Shown in pieces: positions 11,968 through 37,579 of a stretch of 64,000 bases of DNA. The DNA is from a virus. The notes under the pieces are model-generated. The model was not told where the DNA came from and made no database searches. It saw only the letters and a list, made by a program, of their open reading frames with translations. The first letter of the stretch is position 1; each line of letters starts with the position of its first letter. Position numbers and translations under genes: made by a program. Where the stretch lies: the IMG/VR virus record IMGVR_UViG_3300045012_000053, positions 37,361-101,360 of that record; one strand, written 5' to 3'.

Positions 11968-12028
11968 GATTGGGGGTGTGTGCCCAAACACACGCCCCTA
12001 ATCAACTCTTTTGGGAGAGTATAAAGTG
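11968..12028 (+). promoter_or_regulatory. Twin-hairpin kissing-loop leader occluding the SD of an EndoVII gene (copy 2)
   Basis: 15-bp stem with loop CCCAAA (11983-11988), then ACTCT-TTTGGG-AGAGT; loops complementary; GTG at 12026. Confidence 0.65.
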
Positions 12029-12391
12029 AAAACATCGACTTTGAAAGTTCGTCAATGGCGTGAGAAAAATACAGAACGTAATCGAAACAATGGCCGTCGC
12101 TGGTTTGAGAAAAACAGGCAATATGATAGGCTACGTCGACACAGTCTCACACAAGAACAATACGACGCAAAGATGCAAGAGCAAGATAGTCGTTGCGCTG
12201 TCTGCTATAAAGAATTCACAGGAACGCCGCACGTTGACCATAATCACAGATGCTGCCCAATACGAAGAAGTTGTGTCAAATGCCGACGCGGCCTTCTCTG
12301 TGAAGATTGTAATCTAGGCCTCGGCAGATTCAAAGACTCAATAGAAGTTCTCAGCAACGCAATCGAATATCTCAAAGGATACAAACAATGA
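12026..12391 (+). CDS. Endonuclease VII-family HNH (homing) endonuclease
   Basis: QDSRCAVC...HVDHNH...RGLLCEDCNLGLG. Confidence 0.9.
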   Translation: MKTSTLKVRQWREKNTERNRNNGRRWFEKNRQYDRLRRHSLTQEQYDAKMQEQDSRCAVCYKEFTGTPHVDHNHRCCPIRRSCVKCRRGLLCEDCNLGLGRFKDSIEVLSNAIEYLKGYKQ

Positions 12392-26080: not shown

Positions 26081-28378
26081 ATGACGATTCAAGATAGCGC
26101 CACACCACAGTTAGATCAGAACGGGAACCCGCTTCCCGCGCAAGGCGCGGCACCCGGTGCGCCTCCTCCATCACCGATTGTTTCCGGTGCGCCGGACTTG
26201 GCAACTGCGGTCGCGCAAGCATTTTTGAAGCATACGGCTCAGATCGCGCAGAACTCGACAGTGGCTCAAAGCGCGAGAGCGGCGGAAGCGCAGAAGGCTC
26301 TTGCCTCCGCAACTCCCGCAGTCGACCGTCCTGTAGATGACGACAATCAAGCGTCAGCGCCCGGCTCATTTGCATCCAAGCTGACTGGAGCGCTCGGCGA
26401 CGCGGCTCACGCGACCGACCGCCCGGGCGGGTGGTTGAGCGGCGTGGTGAATACATTGAACGCGAAGAATGTGCGTCTCGCTCAAGAACAGAAGGACGCA
26501 GTTTTGATGGCGAAGTCACAAGCGGAAAACATTGCGCTGCACCGCAACTTCTATCAGCAGGATTTGCAGCACCGTCAGCAGTTTCAAGAAGGTAACAAGG
26601 CGTTCTTCTCTCAGTACAGAGAGTCGAACGATGTGCAAGACGGCGTGTCCCAAGAAGAAGTCATGGACCGTATGAAGAAGGACAAGAACTTCCCGAAGGA
26701 TTTTCTTGTTCGCGCTACCGGAGAAGTGCCTGTAGCCGATAAGGACGGGAAGGAAAAGATCGATCAGTTCGGTAACCCTGTTATGAAGCCGACCTTCTCG
26801 ATCATGACGGTCGCAACCAAGGACGGCTCCGATGCGACGAAGACCATAGACGGGGACGAGAGCGCTGCGTACAACAAGCTACTCGGAATGAGATTGCCCG
26901 CTGGTACGAAGTTGACGATGGCGCAAGACAACGCGCTCAGCTTGAAGCTTGCGGCTGCTCGCGACAACACAAACATTTTGACGAAGGTCAACGGCGGGAA
27001 GGAACTCAGCCCGGACGTTATGGCTTCGATCAGACCGCTCATCACGGACCCGACAGTCGGCGCAGCTCTGGCTGCTGTCCCGGGAAAGCCGTACGACGGC
27101 ATTGTTCAACACATGCAGAACGCGGACGCGCATCTCGCTGTGTATCAGCAGCAAGCCAAGATGGCGAAGGAACAGAACAACCAGCAGGCGCTGGATGCTG
27201 CGAACGCGGGCATCAAGAGCGTTCAAGAGGAACGCCAGAAGCTGCAAGCCATTGTAGATCAAGCAATTCCGGATAAGGAAATCGAGGCGTACAACAAGAA
27301 GGCCGATGATGCAACGTCGATGATAACCGACTTGCAGAAGAAGGCGGATGCTGCGCACGGCGAAGAAGCTGCGGCGCTGGCGGCATCGACAAAGAAGATG
27401 CTGGAAGACGGCCAGTACACAGACTCTCAAAAGAAGATTCTTGGCCGCATCGCGGTTCAAGCGCAGACGGCAGCGGATGCCAGCCTAGCATTTGAAGAGA
27501 AGAAGGAAAAGAACAAGGCCGAGGCTACCAACGCCCTCGCGGAAGGCGACACGGATACTCTGGTTGCCGCTGCGGAGAACTACCAGCTAGACCCGAACAA
27601 GCTGTACTCGATGCGCAAGAACACGAACGCGGAGTTCAAGGCGAAGTTGCTCGCGAAGGACCCGACGTGGAGCGAGACGACTTACAAGCAGCGTTACGCG
27701 ATGAATCAGGAACTCGCTTCCGACAAGCCGAACAGCATGGGCGGACAGGTCGAAAGCTTGAACCGTTTCGCTTACCACACAGGGGAAGCAAACCGCAGCA
27801 TCGAAGGGCTGCGTAACATCGGCTCTCCGATTGTGAACACCGCGTTGAACAAGATCAAGGCGGGCACGGTCGGTTTCGAAGAGGCTCAAGCGTTCAAGAT
27901 CAAGGCGGAAACGGCTAAGGACGAATTCTTGAACTTCATTAAGAACGGCCACGTTCCTCCAACAGATCAGGAAGAAAGACTTGCGGCGTCGATCAATGAG
28001 AACAGAACGCCAGCGGAACTACAGTCTTCGTTCCGCGCGATGGCAGAACTGGCAGCCGCTCGTGCGAAGGCAATGAACGGACGCTACAACACCATCATGG
28101 GCAAGGGAAATATCCCGGGCCTTTTGTCGCCTGACACGACCAGCATCCTCAGTCAGTTCGGCGTGGATGTTAACGCGATCACAAACACAACTGGGACCAG
28201 CAGCTTTAGCCGCGCGATCAACCCCGGGTCGGTTCCAAACAACCAGCCGCCGAAGAACGCGGTAGACCCGACCAAGATGGGTAAGGCTGTTGACGGAACG
28301 CCTGTATGGTTGGCGAAAGACGGCAGCGTAGTAGACGCGCAAGGCAACGTATACGTGAACGGTAAGAGACAACAATAA
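26081..28378 (+). CDS. Internal virion (ejection) protein 2
   Basis: 765-aa helical A/Q/K-rich protein; position. Confidence 0.7.
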   Translation: MTIQDSATPQLDQNGNPLPAQGAAPGAPPPSPIVSGAPDLATAVAQAFLKHTAQIAQNSTVAQSARAAEAQKALASATPAVDRPVDDDNQASAPGSFASKLTGALGDAAHATDRPGGWLSGVVNTLNAKNVRLAQEQKDAVLMAKSQAENIALHRNFYQQDLQHRQQFQEGNKAFFSQYRESNDVQDGVSQEEVMDRMKKDKNFPKDFLVRATGEVPVADKDGKEKIDQFGNPVMKPTFSIMTVATKDGSDATKTIDGDESAAYNKLLGMRLPAGTKLTMAQDNALSLKLAAARDNTNILTKVNGGKELSPDVMASIRPLITDPTVGAALAAVPGKPYDGIVQHMQNADAHLAVYQQQAKMAKEQNNQQALDAANAGIKSVQEERQKLQAIVDQAIPDKEIEAYNKKADDATSMITDLQKKADAAHGEEAAALAASTKKMLEDGQYTDSQKKILGRIAVQAQTAADASLAFEEKKEKNKAEATNALAEGDTDTLVAAAENYQLDPNKLYSMRKNTNAEFKAKLLAKDPTWSETTYKQRYAMNQELASDKPNSMGGQVESLNRFAYHTGEANRSIEGLRNIGSPIVNTALNKIKAGTVGFEEAQAFKIKAETAKDEFLNFIKNGHVPPTDQEERLAASINENRTPAELQSSFRAMAELAAARAKAMNGRYNTIMGKGNIPGLLSPDTTSILSQFGVDVNAITNTTGTSSFSRAINPGSVPNNQPPKNAVDPTKMGKAVDGTPVWLAKDGSVVDAQGNVYVNGKRQQ

Positions 28379-31300
28379 TGACCGACGCAAACGCAACACC
28401 AGACACGCTGGACAGCGGGCCGAAGCAGATTAATGTCCCGCCGTATCCCGGCACAACGCGAATCGAGAACGGACAAGCCTTTGATGTTGCGGGCAAGGTT
28501 CTCGGCGGCGTTGATGACAGCGGGAAGCCGACAGGCAAGGCTGCGCCCACGCCCCCAGCCCAGACATTCGATTACGGATTCGGCAAGCAGGCGAAACCTG
28601 CAACACCAGCTGCGAGCGGATTCGACTACGGATTCGGAAAGCACAACGATAACCCCACCAAGGGAACTCGTTTCGAAGGCGCTGAGAAGATCGGTAATTA
28701 TTTCTTAGCGAAGCCAATGGAAGGAGAAGAGAATGCGGGCGTAGCCCACTCAATCCACGGCCTTCTAAGTTTTCCCAACGCTCTTTACCACGCGTTCTCC
28801 GACCCGGCAACGCCACAAGAGAAAGTTGAGATCGAACAGAAGATGAACCAGATGCGCGCCGGGCAGGGCATGCCAGCTGCATCGACGTTGCCTGCTGTTC
28901 CCGGACAAGTGATCGGCGCGGTTACAAATACGTACGACAAGACACCGAAGCCGCCGACTCGTACGCAGCTCGCGCTGCACCGTTTGATCGACGCGCCTGC
29001 GGACGAGTTGGACGCGAAAGCTAACAGAGAATTGGAAACGTCTCGCGAACTGTGGGATAAGCGTCACGAGTGGAGCGGATTGATTCCAACGGGCACGGGC
29101 ATCTCGATTCCCATGAATCAGGCTATGGCGCTCAGCGGTTCGTTGTCCGGAGCTGCGGATAAAGTTTTGTCTCGCATTCCGATGTTGGGTCCTCTCGTTA
29201 ACGGCATATCGGAAAAATTTGAGAAGGGCGACATCTCCGGCGGTATGACCGATCTCGCTGGATTGAAGTTGATGGAAGCTGTGCACCAAGAGGCTACGGG
29301 CGAACCTGCCGTCCCGAGTAAGATGTGGCACGACAAGGGCAATGAACTAGGACGTGCTGCGGGCAAACTGCTTTCAAAGGCGAGCGAAGTCAGCGACAAG
29401 GCGAACGCCGCGAAGGAAGACTTCCAACGCGTTGTGCCTCCGACGAAGGCTGCGCCATATGACGCCAACGATTATGAGATCGTGCGCCGTGGTGCGGAAG
29501 AGCAGCACAAGGCTGACAAGCTGAGCGGCGGACAAGGTATCACAGACGTGGAGTCTGCGCGCGACGCGGTGGAAGACAGCAGACAGGCTATCGAGAACAA
29601 GCGCGGCGGTGCGGTGAAGGCAAACGCCGACCGCCCGATCACGACAAACGTTTTTGAAGACGTAGCGAACGCGCTGTTCGACAAGGACCAGAATGTTCCC
29701 GGATGGCGTGATCGCGGCATGAAGGTGCTGGAAGACTACGACTTCAAGGATATGACGAACGGGGAAGCGGACGCGGTTCGTAAAGAACTGGTTGCGAAGA
29801 ACCGTTTGAAGGTACAGAAGCCGGGCGACGCGGCCAGCTTGAGAGAGTCGGACCCGGTTTACGCGGCGAACGAAGCGGTAATCAACAGCTTGCGCAACGG
29901 CATTTACGGCTCTTTGCAGGAAGCGGGCGTTCCGGAAGCGTACGATTGGGCGCGCGACGAGGCTGCGCACATCCGTGTGCGTAACGCTATCGACCGCCAG
30001 CTGTACAACGGAGAGAAGACTTTACGCGGTAGCGGAGATGCCAGCACCGCGCGCAAGATCGCCGCGCAGTCAGCTAGAGGCCTATCAACGGTCACTGGGG
30101 GCGGCGTGGGCGCTGCTGTCGGCGGACTCCCGGGAGCAATCGTAGGAAGCGCTGCGGGAAGCGTGCTGGGAGAAGGATTAAGCAGAGCCATTCTACCGGA
30201 TGATTTGACTCGTAACGAAATGATGGCGAGATCGTTTCAAAACGAAACGGCAACGCCGGGCGGTCCAACCGTACCGGAATCGCAGGCTCCGAACGTACCG
30301 CATCCGGAAGGCCCAGCAGGCCCCGATCTGCCGCCTCCACCTCAGCCTATCGCACCTGTGATGCCTCCACCGGACCACGCGCTGCACGCTGCGCTGGCAA
30401 CCCGTGTCGGCACGACTGTCGAAAGAAGCAGCTTGAACAACCTGATGACGCAGTTCCAGCAGTACTTGGACAGCACGCCGACGCAGAACTTGACGGACGC
30501 TGACCGCGAGCTGCTAGAACAGGTCAATCAGTCTCAAGGCGCGCGTCGCGCGAAGATGGCCGAGGCGGTTCAAACGGCTGTCGAGAAGAACAAGGCTGCG
30601 AGAGAGAAGTGGCAGCAGGAAGTTCAAAAGGTTCAAGAAAAGTACGCGGCGGAACAGAAGAAGTCTGTTGCGGAAGCCGTGACAGATAAAGAGAAGGAGC
30701 AGGCCGATCTTCTCGCGGATGAGAACATCGCGCACAGCCCGGTCATGAAGGCGACCGAGAAGGCGATGGAAATCAAGGGCGTGGAAGGCCGCACGCCGTT
30801 GCAGAACATGGAGCATGAGCATGGACACATACTGGCGTTCGCGGCAGAGAAGCTGAACCCGATTAACTTCATCTCGGAAAGTCACCCGGATGCTTTGGAG
30901 CACAACGCTGCGGCGTCTGTGCAAGCGGACGTATCGGACGCGGAGGAAGGCGCGAAGGGTCTTGCCCAGCGCGTCGTAGGTATCCTCGGCGGTCCAGCGT
31001 TCGATGAAATTCACCACGACATCTCTATCAACAGAAATCCGGGTGCGCGTGCGGACATCGCTCGTGCTCGTGAAATTCTGAGAGGGGAAGGCGGATTGAA
31101 GGGCGATGACTTGAATAAGGTCTTCGATGCTCTTTATGACCGCGCGAAGGAACACGTATCTAACCCGGAAGCGCTCGCGCTCGTGAGAGCAAACGCGCCT
31201 CTTCGTGAAGCAGGTCTGCACGAAAATTACCATATGAGTCCGGGACGCCTAGCAGAATATGTCAAGAAACTACAAGGAGTATTCAATGGAAACGGTGAAA

Positions 31301-33696
31301 CACCAAGCACCACAGGAGTTCATGAAGGGCCTGCCGATGGCGGACTACCAGAAGGAGAACAAGCTGGAGCCGGAGGAGCAGGAGAAAAACCGAATGGACC
31401 TGCTGCAAGAGTTTCATCCGAAGAAGCACGAGCGGCTGATGAAGCTGGCGGCGGGAAAGAAGGAAAACGAGAAGAGCAAGCAAACCTAAGTAAGGAAGAT
31501 GAAGAAGCGTTCCTTACTAGCGAGTATCATACACCTTTAAAGCAGAGATACAATGTCGAAGTCACTGAAGGTGGGGAGACTCGCAACGAGGCGGTTGATG
31601 CGTTTTCTCACAAGCAGGCGATGAAGGCCGTACAAAAAGAGTTTCCTAATGCTCAAGAATGGAGCGTCGGGGAGCGCGCATCGATTCCGAATGAGGGCGG
31701 TTACTCGGTTCCGAACAAGGCTCCTCTGTTCACCCCCGGAAGTAAGGGCGGGAGAATGCCTATTGAAAACACCATGAAGCACGAGCTAGGTCACTACATG
31801 GTGGGGCACAACGAAGGATTTTTATCCGACGGTGTTTTGAGACACACTCATCCCGATATGCCGAAGGGTGTCAATGCTGCTGTATTTTGGGATAACGGAC
31901 AGTTCTATGACGCTGCCACGCGTCGCATCAAAGCAGAGAAGTTGCCCGGCGTGATACGCATGCTAATGGGCGGCGTGGCTGCGGACGAAGCTTTCTCCGA
32001 TCTCCCTCGCGATAAGAGCATTCAGTTCGACCCGAAAGCGGGCGGGGACGGCACGATGGCTCTTCGATTCTTGCGCACAGCGGGATTCGATCACGATACC
32101 GCCATGAGTATGATGCACGCTGCGGTAGATCAAGCAAAAGAACACTTGACAAAACCAGCGGTTTCTGATATCATAAATGAAAATGCAGGGGTGCGCGAGA
32201 ACAATCTCTCGACCCAGTACCACTATAGTCCGGAAAGACTCAAGGCTATGGGAGATGAAGCGTCGAGAAGACTAGGAGAACAAAATGAGCCTAACAACGG
32301 AAGAGCTGGCACAACAGGCGATCAAATCCGCGCAGCAAATGTCGGAGGAAGAGAAGGCGAAGCTGCGGGAACAGTTGGAGAAAGAGTTCAAACCCCGCAA
32401 GTAAGTGATCGCGTATCAACCCGCGTGCCGGAAGGGAAGGCCGCGACGGAGAACCCGCTGGAAGGCGAGCCTCTAGTCGTTGGTAGAGAGGCATTGAAGA
32501 ACACGCCGGAGAAGCTGCAACAGAAGTTCGCGGACACGGTTCGCGATTACCCGGGCGTGAAGATTCCGGCAGGCGTGAAGGACCCGGGCAAGGTCATGGA
32601 CCGCTTCGTGAGTCACGTGAAGGACAACTTGAAGTTCATCTACGATCAGGTTCCCCCGGAGAAGCAGGCCGCGAACGCCAAGTGGTACGAGTCTGCAAAC
32701 AAGCTGTCGAAAGATTTGGCGGACCAGCACGGCATTTCGGAGCCGCAGTCGGCTGCAACCATCGCGACCCAGTCGCCTCAAAAGGACTGGGACATGAACG
32801 TCTCGCTGGCGCGCCGTATCGCTGACATTCACACGAATCACCAAGACACGGTCACGACTCCCGAGATGCTTCAAAAGGGCCGCGACATCGTGAAGAACAC
32901 AGGGGCTAACGAAGACCTAGGGAAGGCGCTCGACAACTTGGAGGGAAAGAAGTTCTCCCAGTTGACCGACCCGTACGACCGCGCTGCTTGGGTACGTCTA
33001 TACGACGAAGCGCACAATGGTCGGGAGTTCCATTCCATCGACCCGGGCACTGGTGAGAACCGTGGGCTGCGCACCAACGCGGACGGGAGTCCGTCCAAGG
33101 TCGCGTGGGGTTCCCTGCCGCAGATCGACAACGCTCTCTCAGTCTTGGACAATGGAAGCAGAGAGAATATTTCGGAACGCTTGGGCGGTATGCACAAGGT
33201 TCGTAACTTCTACAACAACATCATTGACCCGACCAACGATCAGGACGTAACGATTGACACCCACGCGGTCGCTGCGGGGTTGATGCAGCCGCTGGGCGGT
33301 AGCGCGCCGGAAGTGCTGGACAACTTCGGCAAGGCTGGGAAGCACACCGGAACCGGAGTGAAGGGAACGTACCCGCTTTACGCGGACGCGTACCGTCAAG
33401 CTGCCGGGGAGCTGGGCATCAAGCCTCGTGAACTGCAATCGGTTGTGTGGGAGCACGTTCGTGAAATGTTCCCCTCGGAGTGGAAGTCGCCGGAGAACGA
33501 GAAGCTGGTGAAGAACGTTTGGAAGAAGTACTCCGACGGGAAACAGAGCCTCGATAAGACGCGCCAGCAGATTTTGAAAATCTCGGAAGAGGCCCAGAAG
33601 GGCGTGAACGACACTAGGGAAGCAGCCCAAAAGAAAGCGCTTGACAAACAGGCCAAACTAGTGTATGCTGGTAAAGAATCAGGAGGTGCGGAATGA
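28378..33696 (+). CDS. Giant polyvalent ejection protein: Gly-zipper TM region, two M41/FtsH-like Zn-protease domains, C-terminal HhH-GPD/Ogg2-like domain
   Basis: HEHGH...LGGPAFDE...GARAD; HELGH...MGGVAADE...AGGD; KVRNFYNN...TIDTH...ELQSVVW. Confidence 0.75.
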   Translation: MTDANATPDTLDSGPKQINVPPYPGTTRIENGQAFDVAGKVLGGVDDSGKPTGKAAPTPPAQTFDYGFGKQAKPATPAASGFDYGFGKHNDNPTKGTRFEGAEKIGNYFLAKPMEGEENAGVAHSIHGLLSFPNALYHAFSDPATPQEKVEIEQKMNQMRAGQGMPAASTLPAVPGQVIGAVTNTYDKTPKPPTRTQLALHRLIDAPADELDAKANRELETSRELWDKRHEWSGLIPTGTGISIPMNQAMALSGSLSGAADKVLSRIPMLGPLVNGISEKFEKGDISGGMTDLAGLKLMEAVHQEATGEPAVPSKMWHDKGNELGRAAGKLLSKASEVSDKANAAKEDFQRVVPPTKAAPYDANDYEIVRRGAEEQHKADKLSGGQGITDVESARDAVEDSRQAIENKRGGAVKANADRPITTNVFEDVANALFDKDQNVPGWRDRGMKVLEDYDFKDMTNGEADAVRKELVAKNRLKVQKPGDAASLRESDPVYAANEAVINSLRNGIYGSLQEAGVPEAYDWARDEAAHIRVRNAIDRQLYNGEKTLRGSGDASTARKIAAQSARGLSTVTGGGVGAAVGGLPGAIVGSAAGSVLGEGLSRAILPDDLTRNEMMARSFQNETATPGGPTVPESQAPNVPHPEGPAGPDLPPPPQPIAPVMPPPDHALHAALATRVGTTVERSSLNNLMTQFQQYLDSTPTQNLTDADRELLEQVNQSQGARRAKMAEAVQTAVEKNKAAREKWQQEVQKVQEKYAAEQKKSVAEAVTDKEKEQADLLADENIAHSPVMKATEKAMEIKGVEGRTPLQNMEHEHGHILAFAAEKLNPINFISESHPDALEHNAAASVQADVSDAEEGAKGLAQRVVGILGGPAFDEIHHDISINRNPGARADIARAREILRGEGGLKGDDLNKVFDALYDRAKEHVSNPEALALVRANAPLREAGLHENYHMSPGRLAEYVKKLQGVFNGNGETPSTTGVHEGPADGGLPEGEQAGAGGAGEKPNGPAARVSSEEARAADEAGGGKEGKREEQANLSKEDEEAFLTSEYHTPLKQRYNVEVTEGGETRNEAVDAFSHKQAMKAVQKEFPNAQEWSVGERASIPNEGGYSVPNKAPLFTPGSKGGRMPIENTMKHELGHYMVGHNEGFLSDGVLRHTHPDMPKGVNAAVFWDNGQFYDAATRRIKAEKLPGVIRMLMGGVAADEAFSDLPRDKSIQFDPKAGGDGTMALRFLRTAGFDHDTAMSMMHAAVDQAKEHLTKPAVSDIINENAGVRENNLSTQYHYSPERLKAMGDEASRRLGEQNEPNNGRAGTTGDQIRAANVGGREGEAAGTVGERVQTPQVSDRVSTRVPEGKAATENPLEGEPLVVGREALKNTPEKLQQKFADTVRDYPGVKIPAGVKDPGKVMDRFVSHVKDNLKFIYDQVPPEKQAANAKWYESANKLSKDLADQHGISEPQSAATIATQSPQKDWDMNVSLARRIADIHTNHQDTVTTPEMLQKGRDIVKNTGANEDLGKALDNLEGKKFSQLTDPYDRAAWVRLYDEAHNGREFHSIDPGTGENRGLRTNADGSPSKVAWGSLPQIDNALSVLDNGSRENISERLGGMHKVRNFYNNIIDPTNDQDVTIDTHAVAAGLMQPLGGSAPEVLDNFGKAGKHTGTGVKGTYPLYADAYRQAAGELGIKPRELQSVVWEHVREMFPSEWKSPENEKLVKNVWKKYSDGKQSLDKTRQQILKISEEAQKGVNDTREAAQKKALDKQAKLVYAGKESGGAE
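31286..31489 (+). CDS. Nested +1-frame ORF (67 aa) after protease domain 1; candidate inhibitor
   Basis: AAGGAG SD 6 nt before ATG; charged helical product; the overlapped main frame is a low-complexity G/E/A/P linker. Confidence 0.55.
   Translation: METVKHQAPQEFMKGLPMADYQKENKLEPEEQEKNRMDLLQEFHPKKHERLMKLAAGKKENEKSKQT
32146..32174 (+). promoter_or_regulatory. Intragenic sigma70 promoter upstream of nested ORF 32285
   Basis: TTGACA-N17-TATCAT with extended -10 TG. Confidence 0.6.
32285..32404 (+). CDS. Nested +1-frame ORF (39 aa, MSLTTEELAQQAIKSAQQMSEEEKAKLREQLEKEFKPRK) after protease domain 2; candidate inhibitor
   Basis: AGGAG SD 6 nt before ATG; promoter upstream; clean amphipathic helices; the main frame is a G/R/A linker. 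Confidence 0.55.
   Translation: MSLTTEELAQQAIKSAQQMSEEEKAKLREQLEKEFKPRK
33641..33669 (+). promoter_or_regulatory. Intragenic sigma70 promoter at the 3' end of the giant gene
   Basis: TTGACA-N17-TATGCT. Confidence 0.65.
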
Positions 33697-33872
33697 GCGA
33701 TATCGTCTTAAACAAGATGAAGGAGATGGGGGTTGAACCGACCCGCAAGAACTATCTCGACTTCGCTTATCTCGGCACACCGCCTGAGAAACTATCAGCG
33801 GAAGAGGAAGCGATGCTTCCGAAAGGGCTGCGAGATGACGACACAGGAAGTTCAGAAGGCGCTGGCGCGTAA
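33693..33872 (+). CDS. 59-aa acidic protein (..PTRKNYLDFAYLGTPPEKLSAEEEAMLP..) after the HhH-like domain; candidate inhibitor
   Basis: AGGAGG SD, ATGA overlap with the giant gene's stop, own promoter; below the ORF-track cutoff. Confidence 0.7.
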   Translation: MSDIVLNKMKEMGVEPTRKNYLDFAYLGTPPEKLSAEEEAMLPKGLRDDDTGSSEGAGA

Positions 33873-36943: not shown

Positions 36944-37579
36944 TTAAAGAAAATCGCCCGATCTGGGACTAGACCGGGCGCCCAATGACCGCTCGAATCC
37001 TTCTACACGTCCTTGCTGGCGCTGCCACTCTGGGCCAACGGCTTTATCACGAAGCCTCTTAGCTTCGCTTAACTGCTGCTCAATGCCCGCTTCCCCCTGC
37101 TTGCCCTCGACGGGCGGCTCCACGCTTTCGATGTACTCGTAGCGGCACATGCAACCACCTGCTTCGGTTATGACGCCGCAATAGCTAGTAGTCTGGTGCT
37201 CATGGTGACATTCAGCACAACGCCAGATGCGTCTGACGGGCGGCTCGGCTATTTTCGCGTTTAGAATCCTGTGCAACTCGCAAGAACATCCATCCTCATC
37301 CTCTCCGCGCAAATGCTCTTCGCAGAATCGTACAGCCTTTTTCCATTCAGATGACTCATCGGACCAGACTGTATGCTCTGGCGCGGGCGGCTCTCCTGCT
37401 GCTGGGACGGCGAGCAGGGCTTCGAGTTCGTCGGCGCAATAACGCAACGCATCCACGGTCTGACCATTGACTGTTGGACCTGCCAAGCTCCAACGCACAG
37501 CTTTATCACGCCACATTGCCACCAGGCCCCGCAGCGCCTCAAAGGGCTTCTGTTCGCTCATCATAACACCACCGTACAA
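36944..37579 (-). CDS. Hypothetical protein with Cys/His cluster
   Basis: CADELEA motif and CAECHHEH...C...CMC. Confidence 0.5.
   Translation of the reverse strand: MYGGVMMSEQKPFEALRGLVAMWRDKAVRWSLAGPTVNGQTVDALRYCADELEALLAVPAAGEPPAPEHTVWSDESSEWKKAVRFCEEHLRGEDEDGCSCELHRILNAKIAEPPVRRIWRCAECHHEHQTTSYCGVITEAGGCMCRYEYIESVEPPVEGKQGEAGIEQQLSEAKRLRDKAVGPEWQRQQGRVEGFERSLGARSSPRSGDFL

Follow-up and report, generated by a model that had tools for sequence, protein, structure and literature searches.

The giant gene and its three small companions

The stretch of DNA analysed here (64,000 nucleotides (nt), hereafter the window) covers positions 37,361 to 101,360 of the IMG/VR record IMGVR_UViG_3300045012_000053, a complete genome of 101,360 bp with direct terminal repeats from an uncultured virus. 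On the + strand, a block of genes runs from the large terminase through an SU10-type portal to large tail-type genes, and its last open reading frame (ORF) encodes a giant protein carrying two HExxH zincin domains and a C-terminal DUF7178 domain. Each of the three domains is followed by a small ORF (Table 1). Comparison with homologous loci has shown, at the level of sequence, that the three small ORFs are real genes, that they are under selection and tied to the domains that precede them, and that their expression signals are conserved. We regard their products as real, unannotated partners of these domains, which are probably built-in inhibitors.

The giant protein qualifies as polyvalent, since it possesses at least two effector-type domains (two zincins and DUF7178) in an architecture that differs among its relatives. 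The layout, with every domain trailed by its own small ORF, had been described in an earlier note made from the letters of the window alone. All the sequence facts given there were correct, including the strong Shine-Dalgarno (SD) sequences at one and the same distance from all three start codons, and the glycine-, alanine-, glutamate- and proline-rich linker that occupies the main frame over both nested ORFs. This linker is poor in T and, across the loci that carry gene 2, is variable and of low complexity.

Table 1 Positions of the giant gene, its domains, the small genes and their expression signals in the window
Feature	Position	Strand	Description
Main ORF	28378..33696	+	1772 amino acids (aa); polyvalent protein closing the terminase-portal-tail gene block
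Zincin domain 1	30700..31257	+	HEHGH at nt 30814, aa 813
SD AAGGAG	31274..31279	+	6 nt before ATG of nested gene 1
Nested gene 1	31286..31489	+	+1 frame, 67 aa, follows zincin domain 1
Zincin domain 2	31495..32289	+	aa 1040-1304; N-terminal alpha/beta subdomain and predicted FtsH/M41-like fold; HELGH (aa 1135), MGGVAADE
Sigma-70-like site TTGACA-N17-TATCAT	32146..32174	+	11/12, TG extension, 110 nt before nested gene 2
SD AGGAG	32274..32278	+	6 nt before ATG of nested gene 2
Nested gene 2	32285..32404	+	+1 frame, 39-aa helical peptide; conserved LTTEQL, MSPEEKAE
C-terminal DUF7178 (PF23802)	32398..33693	+	Pfam 96.5 bits against a cut-off of 27; predicted HhH-GPD glycosylase-like fold
Sigma-70-like site TTGACA-N17-TATGCT	33641..33669	+	10/12, 23 nt before small gene 3
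SD AGGAGG	33681..33686	+	6 nt before ATG of small gene 3
Small gene 3	33693..33872	+	59 aa, acidic; start overlaps main stop as ATGA

Conservation and selection of nested gene 2

Homologous loci (numbered with an L) were gathered from IMG/VR and JGI metagenomes. The earlier note had allowed that the nested ORFs might turn out to be unconserved, and this is not the case: the peptide family, the SD, the ATG and a stop at the same place are kept in every one of the 16 distinct loci that carry a HELGH-type domain, where domain 2 itself is only 38-54% identical. The peptides follow the consensus M-x(n)-LTTEQL-x(11)-MSPEEKAE-x-R-x-x-L-x-K, and a GGAG, AGGAG or AGGAGG core lies 4-8 nt before the ATG in every one of them. 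In every locus the main frame stays open while the nested one is conserved, which is the pattern of an embedded gene.

The two frames can be compared over the same aligned DNA, where amino-acid identity is 43% in the nested frame against 30% in the main frame. Pairwise differences at nested codon positions 1, 2 and 3 are 0.48, 0.29 and 0.50. In main-frame terms this becomes 0.50, 0.48 and 0.29, so that the third position is the least variable, in contrast to the adjacent, non-overlapped domain where the values are normal (0.41, 0.35 and 0.66). This reversal argues that selection in the overlap acts on the nested frame, and it is the suppression of synonymous variation (0.29 against 0.66) that the earlier note had suggested looking for in the linkers. 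The overlapping stretches of the giant protein thus appear to be largely a by-product of the small gene.

The SD provides a further case. It is usually supplied by AGG AGA, the codons of an invariant Arg-Arg pair; in the window these read AGA AGA instead, but AGGAG is recreated 6 nt downstream, with the start codon shifted to match. Such compensation points to selection on the ribosome-binding site itself.

Because a gene lying wholly inside another is disallowed by standard gene finders, these proteins are missing from annotations: a peptide profile search of a 5.8-billion-protein database recovered only 54 small called proteins, fragments with E values down to 1e-15. A DNA-pattern scan of IMG/VR gave 12 strong matches to peptide 2 and no free-standing copy; all 12 lie nested within a longer ORF (at least 434-2163 aa, the lowest values coming from ORFs truncated where the retrieved DNA ends). 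One locus (L013:6776-7030) has two tandem nested copies in the same linker; the second (MTTEQLGQAVLKSVQQMSPTEKAE...) starts one codon past the stop of the first and has no clear SD.

The other small genes and their linkage to the domains

Nested gene 1 is conserved in two further lineages (L018/L103 and L104/L105), and its SD is kept as AAGGAG or AAGGGG in L018 and L104; an alternative in-frame ATG at 31259 lacks an SD. In this set the nested codon positions differ by 0.36, 0.23 and 0.41, and identity is 55% in the nested frame against 43% in the main frame. Distant relatives of peptide 1 follow the first domain in L005, L008, L015 and L016. In all, four further nested gene sets show nested-frame constraint in the same direction as gene 2, namely gene 1 with its relatives, the distant first-domain peptides, the peptides associated with HEWAH domains and the nested copies of gene 3.

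A homologue of gene 3 follows DUF7178 in 13 of the 13 loci that possess the domain and in none of the six that lack it (one of the six ends at its contig end). It is free-standing in seven loci, the window included, where the big ORF stops, and nested in the +1 frame in the other six, where the big ORF continues beyond it, in L012 as far as a further HEAGH protease domain. The existence of both states would fit a history in which neighbouring genes were joined, by read-through or fusion, and the small gene was retained; the earlier note had accounted for the overprinting by such a fusion. Its suggestion that homologous domains elsewhere would be trailed by homologous small ORFs is likewise borne out, by peptide 2 in 16/16 loci and by gene 3 in 13/13.

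The peptide subtype tracks the protease subtype across loci: one type accompanies HEHGH domains (window, L018, L104), another HDxxH domains (L005, L008, L015, L016), a third HEWAH domains (L002, L019) and a fourth the HELGH domains of the 16 loci described above. Peptides 1 and 2 are distantly alike (LEPEEQ.. and MSPEEK..), as are their domains, which suggests that domain and peptide were duplicated together. Pfam shows no family similarity for peptide 1, peptide 2 or the product of gene 3, and searches of Pfam and PHROGs left both the small proteins and the first 1300 aa of the giant protein without a family.

Promoter-like sites inside the coding sequence

TTGACA-N17 promoters ahead of genes 2 and 3 had been proposed in the earlier note, and both sites stand, with conservation in most loci. 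They are matches to the sigma-70 consensus, which may not be that of the host. Only four + strand sites in the whole 64 kb reach at least 10/12, and two of them are those at 32146 and 33641. The remaining two (11936 and 12215) lie ahead of ORF 12011..12391.

The site at 32146 sits within the coding sequence for a conserved LTKPxVSDII motif. At the homologous place, 13 of 16 loci reach at least 10/12 and 14 of 16 at least 9/12, with a perfect 12/12 in L003, and the site is found 101-110 nt before the nested ATG; as background, 4.3% of 200-nt windows in these genes reach at least 10/12. The Leu codon within the site is TTG in 15 of the 16 loci, as against 25% of Leu codons overall, and the -10 element retains its first T by means of a GAT codon or, in loci with a different residue, a GGT codon. 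Upstream of gene 3, a TTGACA-N17/18 site of at least 10/12 is present in 10 of 13 loci. By these measures the conservation of the sites preceding genes 2 and 3 exceeds what the encoded amino acids would demand. That they fire, and when and where, we infer from the matches. A promoter conserved inside coding sequence through constrained synonymous codons constitutes a directly testable regulatory prediction.

The enzyme domains

Zincin domains 1 and 2 are paralogues (about 28% identical). An AlphaFold (AF2) model of domain 2, built from 16 homologues, has a predicted local distance difference test score (pLDDT) of 90. With this model, the top 15 Foldseek matches are all FtsH, YME1 or AFG3L2, at a weak E value of 1.4e-2, and VIA gives Z 13.2-11.1 to FtsHi and FtsH protease domains over 138-162 aligned residues (root-mean-square deviation 3.0-3.8), the next unrelated folds reaching only Z ~5. 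The zinc-binding and catalytic residues H96, E97 and H100 (domain numbering) are invariant in 16 domain-2 sequences, as is the MGG[VI]AADE helix; HELGH and this helix resemble the HEAGH and GGRxAEE of FtsH. Pfam Peptidase_M41 gives no match even at E ≤ 1, and a sequence profile search of the PDB returned only spurious repeats and no FtsH. Pfam detects no AAA+ ATPase family either; where such a module might be expected, a small alpha/beta subdomain and a linker come before the domain. With no ATPase module and no Pfam M41 match, domain 2 is M41-like in its predicted fold only and is not a member of the M41 family. The earlier label of M41-like protease therefore stands as a statement about fold (VIA Z 11-13) but not about family membership.

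The subdomain that precedes the protease fold (window 31495-31700, aa 12-68 of the domain-2 model) is a beta-alpha-beta unit with weak structural matches (Z ~5) that include T7 Gp2, AcrIE2 and ribosomal proteins. A third protease type, with HEAGH, terminates the big ORF in L012 (9400-9900) and L017 and appears, by eye, more FtsH-like than the domains of the window.

DUF7178 is the sole Pfam match of the whole 1772-aa protein even at E ≤ 1. Its helical AF2 model has a pLDDT of 87.5, and VIA places only HhH-GPD glycosylases and the related queuine-salvage DUF2419 among its first 20 matches, with Z of only 8.6-5.2. Foldseek finds no match at E ≤ 1e-3, with the glycosylase AGOG (1xqp) at a probability of 0.57. 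In the alignment K267 and D287-T288-H289 are invariant, within HKVRNF...DVTIDTH; we take these to resemble the hairpin lysine and the catalytic VDTH aspartate of EndoIII (GRKTAN...VDTH). The earlier description of this region as an HhH-like domain thus receives moderate support.

Two loci depart from the usual arrangement of this domain. In L020 (2995-4394) the DUF7178 region starts 23 nt after an upstream 809-aa ORF, in a different frame, and gene 3 follows, which suggests that the unit of domain plus partner is able to exist apart from the giant fusion. In L016 (7750-8250) the DUF7178 region is broken over three frames (by frameshifts or assembly errors) and the trailing gene 3 is intact.

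Predicted complex of domain 2 with peptide 2

Modelling of complexes covered pair 2 and used the domain-2 and peptide-2 alignments. Three runs gave an interaction prediction score from aligned errors (ipSAE) of 0.86, 0.88 and 0.88, against 0.02 for the best of three controls; the pLDDT of the partner is 88 and contacts agree by at least 89% among runs. Among solved complexes 58 of 80 reach the pass mark, as do 2 of 110 mismatched pairs; these rates are rough here since our own alignments were used. Complex prediction, which the earlier note had proposed for every domain with every small protein, supports binding for the one pair modelled.

The modelled interface takes in nearly the whole of peptide 2. 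On the domain side it comprises H100 (the second zinc-binding histidine, in the HELGH motif), the cleft-strand residue W132, which is near-invariant, and the helix before MGG..ADE, together with the invariant D185 and A189, which are without obvious catalytic role. The conserved N-terminal LTTEQL segment of the peptide is set against H100 and W132. The model supports binding of peptide 2 over the catalytic cleft of domain 2.

Proposed mechanism and alternatives

On balance, we favour the view that the small proteins are cognate inhibitors that silence each enzyme in the producing cell and are shed on unfolding. The giant gene would encode a modular polyvalent protein with two FtsH-like proteases and an HhH-GPD glycosylase-like domain, each with its partner gene, of which genes 1 and 2 would be read one base out of frame within the linker after their domain. 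Each small gene would be translated from its own ribosome-binding site, and genes 2 and 3 would in addition have sigma-70-type promoters of their own, situated in the part of the main ORF that encodes the preceding domain, an arrangement that would ensure the presence of the inhibitors before, or independently of, the giant protein. Each small protein would bind its cognate domain and block the active site, leaving the enzyme silent in the producing cell, and would be lost as the giant protein unfolds for packaging or ejection. Colicins, which shed their immunity protein during import, offer a model for this last step. Inhibition, toxicity of the domains and ejection of the giant protein are steps that we infer, as is any use of the promoters by a lysogen, which the earlier note had suggested. 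Of the toxin and immunity cassettes that the earlier note had envisaged, cognate pairing (the tracking of subtypes and the strict association of gene 3 with DUF7178) and predicted binding of pair 2 have stood; gene 1 does not follow the pattern of promoters.

Several points weigh against inhibition as we describe it. These can be summarised as (i) the support for binding is one model of one pair; (ii) a peptide bound as modelled might just as well chaperone the domain, activate it, form a structural subunit with it or be its substrate as inhibit it; (iii) HDxxH variant domains, whose catalysis may be altered, are followed by a partner gene as well, and this is harder to explain by inhibition alone; (iv) gene 1 has no conserved promoter-like site upstream; (v) a virion location of the giant protein is suggested only by gene order; (vi) the length of the nested ORFs in a single genome is discounted as evidence, because codon shuffles of the linkers produce +1 ORFs of at least the observed length in 7-42% of trials.

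The main rival holds that the small proteins are cognate partners of another kind: chaperones of folding or assembly, packaging adaptors, structural subunits or factors needed for activity. Such partners might maintain the solubility of each domain or its competence for ejection. It shares the same conservation and binding evidence, it would accommodate the retention of partners after HDxxH domains, and a large interface over nearly the whole peptide is what a subunit would be expected to show. Translation off the same late mRNA would moreover co-express the partner with the giant protein. However, LTTEQL is modelled at the zinc-binding histidine and the cleft strand, where it would obstruct access of substrate, and a separate host-type promoter uncouples expression in a way that a stoichiometric chaperone would not obviously need. 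We consider this rival unlikely, though a serious contender.

A second proposal keeps inhibition and changes its target: expressed early or constitutively, the small proteins would neutralise the effectors of superinfecting relatives (superinfection exclusion) and not serve self-protection during assembly. The conservation of sigma-70-like promoters inside late-gene coding sequence, an integrase gene 2.3 kb downstream and the predicted binding over the active site are all in keeping with it. Yet a scan with the domain-2 alignment found no prophage relative in 185,579 GTDB species genomes, gene 1 lacks a promoter, and the putative promoters of genes 2 and 3 are no more than consensus matches. 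We judge this proposal to have a small chance of being correct.

The nested frames might instead be reached by programmed ribosomal frameshifting, giving truncated giant proteins with the peptide as a cis-acting tail in place of separate small proteins. The frames do overlap, the peptide comes immediately after its domain, and some loci have a +1 frame without stops over the 35-50 codons that lead up to the ATG. Of the 16 first-copy ORFs, however, nine have a +1 stop only 1-4 codons ahead of the conserved ATG; the SD core is conserved at its distance of 4-8 nt in every locus, gene 3 stands free in seven loci, and no conserved slippery motif was noticed around the starts, although no formal search for one was made. 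Frameshifting is thus highly improbable. More improbable still is that the nested ORFs are not genes and merely reflect the composition of T-poor, purine-rich linkers with few stops and abundant GGAG, for although the codon shuffles and a strongly purine-rich coding strand could produce such ORFs, they would not account for a start, stop and peptide sequence conserved in 16/16 loci, for main-frame third positions that are the least variable in the overlap, for the higher identity of the nested frame on the same DNA or for a complex prediction that is confident and specific against controls. The comparison of loci largely excludes both of these readings.

Comparison with known systems

The components of the arrangement are known separately. 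In phage lambda, Rz1 is a complete small gene wholly inside the larger Rz gene in the +1 frame, and both products are made and interact. The nested genes described here resemble Rz1 in being small and complete, in having their own starts and in lying in the +1 frame of a larger phage gene. Unlike Rz1, which is a lysis lipoprotein, their products would be soluble helical peptides encoded in linkers; there is one small gene for each enzyme domain, and putative promoters precede two of these genes. A small out-of-frame peptide gene within a giant multi-module gene is also found in Bacillus subtilis, where comS (about 46 codons) lies out of frame in srfA. ComS acts on competence through MecA/ClpCP and is not a partner of the protein in the srfA frame, unlike the relationship proposed here.

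In polymorphic toxins and in colicin/Im pairs, a small cognate binder is encoded directly after the enzymatic domain and the types are shuffled as cassettes. The present small genes are likewise adjacent to and specific for their domains, with types shuffled together. Immunity genes are normally separate downstream ORFs, whereas here the two nested genes are overprinted on linkers of the giant gene itself.

Lambda CIII and B. subtilis SpoVM are small peptide inhibitors of FtsH; domain 2 has an FtsH-like predicted fold, HExxH and a GG-x-A-A-[DE]-E helix, and a short helical phage peptide is predicted to lie in the protease. In contrast to FtsH/M41, the domain is without an AAA+ ATPase module or a membrane anchor. 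Ugi and p56 are phage inhibitors of glycosylases, and EndoIII, Ogg and AGOG are HhH-GPD DNA glycosylases; the HhH-GPD-like DUF7178 (Z only 8.6) is similarly accompanied by a small acidic phage protein.

Domain 2 fits the zincin metallopeptidase (MPTase) modules that, according to Iyer et al. (2017, PMC5512222), phage polyvalent proteins contain more often than any other domain. The present protein resembles the polyvalent proteins of phages and conjugative elements as a giant multi-domain product of the virion module that combines HExxH zincins with variable modules such as GNAT and DUF7178, but differs in that each protease module examined has its own small out-of-frame gene. The words "overlapping" and "frameshift" do not occur in the text of that study, which thus does not describe linker-nested partner genes. 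A survey of literature on nested or embedded genes in virion proteins or polyvalent proteins, and on DUF7178, found nothing describing such partner genes. Embedded genes, toxin-immunity adjacency and polyvalent proteins are known; what is new is their systematic combination together with conserved intragenic promoter-like sites.

More broadly, we advance the tentative idea that giant polyvalent proteins carry a general, unannotated layer of genes. The unit would be a domain plus an inhibitor overprinted on its linker, in some cases with its own host-type promoter; the enzymes would be kept off in the producing cell, or those of incoming relatives disarmed, and would be armed by unfolding at packaging or ejection. 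If the partners do inhibit, this would explain how proteases and DNA-modifying enzymes destined for a later host can be made and packaged without harm, and would provide a handle on what the domains of polyvalent proteins do. The partners would also add a new family of small peptide ligands for FtsH-like proteases. As a natural case of overprinting the system is a clean one: the "old" frame appears to have decayed to a linker whose sequence the small gene dictates, and the small gene occurs free-standing or nested among relatives.

Relatives of the giant protein and neighbouring genes

Homologues of the giant protein range from 1000 to 2900 aa with shuffled modules, the closest being P0002 and P0003. 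The domain family comprises 216 cluster representatives among 1.84 billion proteins, nearly all of 900-2900 aa. Short proteins with the protease standing alone also occur (P0147 and P0161), neither of them among the viral contigs searched. Phage GenBank records hold no nucleotide match, and four only share the DUF7178 part. Relatives exchange modules, with a GNAT domain, a further HEAGH domain or one protease in place of two. The GNAT acetyltransferase domain is present in P0002, P0007, P0009 and P0017, where it replaces or adds to DUF7178; this shows module swapping within the family.

Directly upstream of the giant gene lies a 765-aa gene (26081-28378), the end of which overlaps the giant gene as ATGA. 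It has no family match, and in relatives a gene of comparable size (658-786 aa) is likewise found upstream.

A motif, (E/D)(G/D)DTSF(D/N/E)FGAN, is absent from the protein of the window and recurs in relatives, in the main-frame tails after DUF7178 of six loci (L004, L007, L009, L012, L013 and L014) and likewise in the linker after domain 2 in L004. The surrounding linkers and tails are variable, and the motif could be a processing or docking site. In the same six loci the giant gene is trailed by a small conserved gene with CxxCGGPLD...VDH(F/Y)HF, of endonuclease VII / HNH type.

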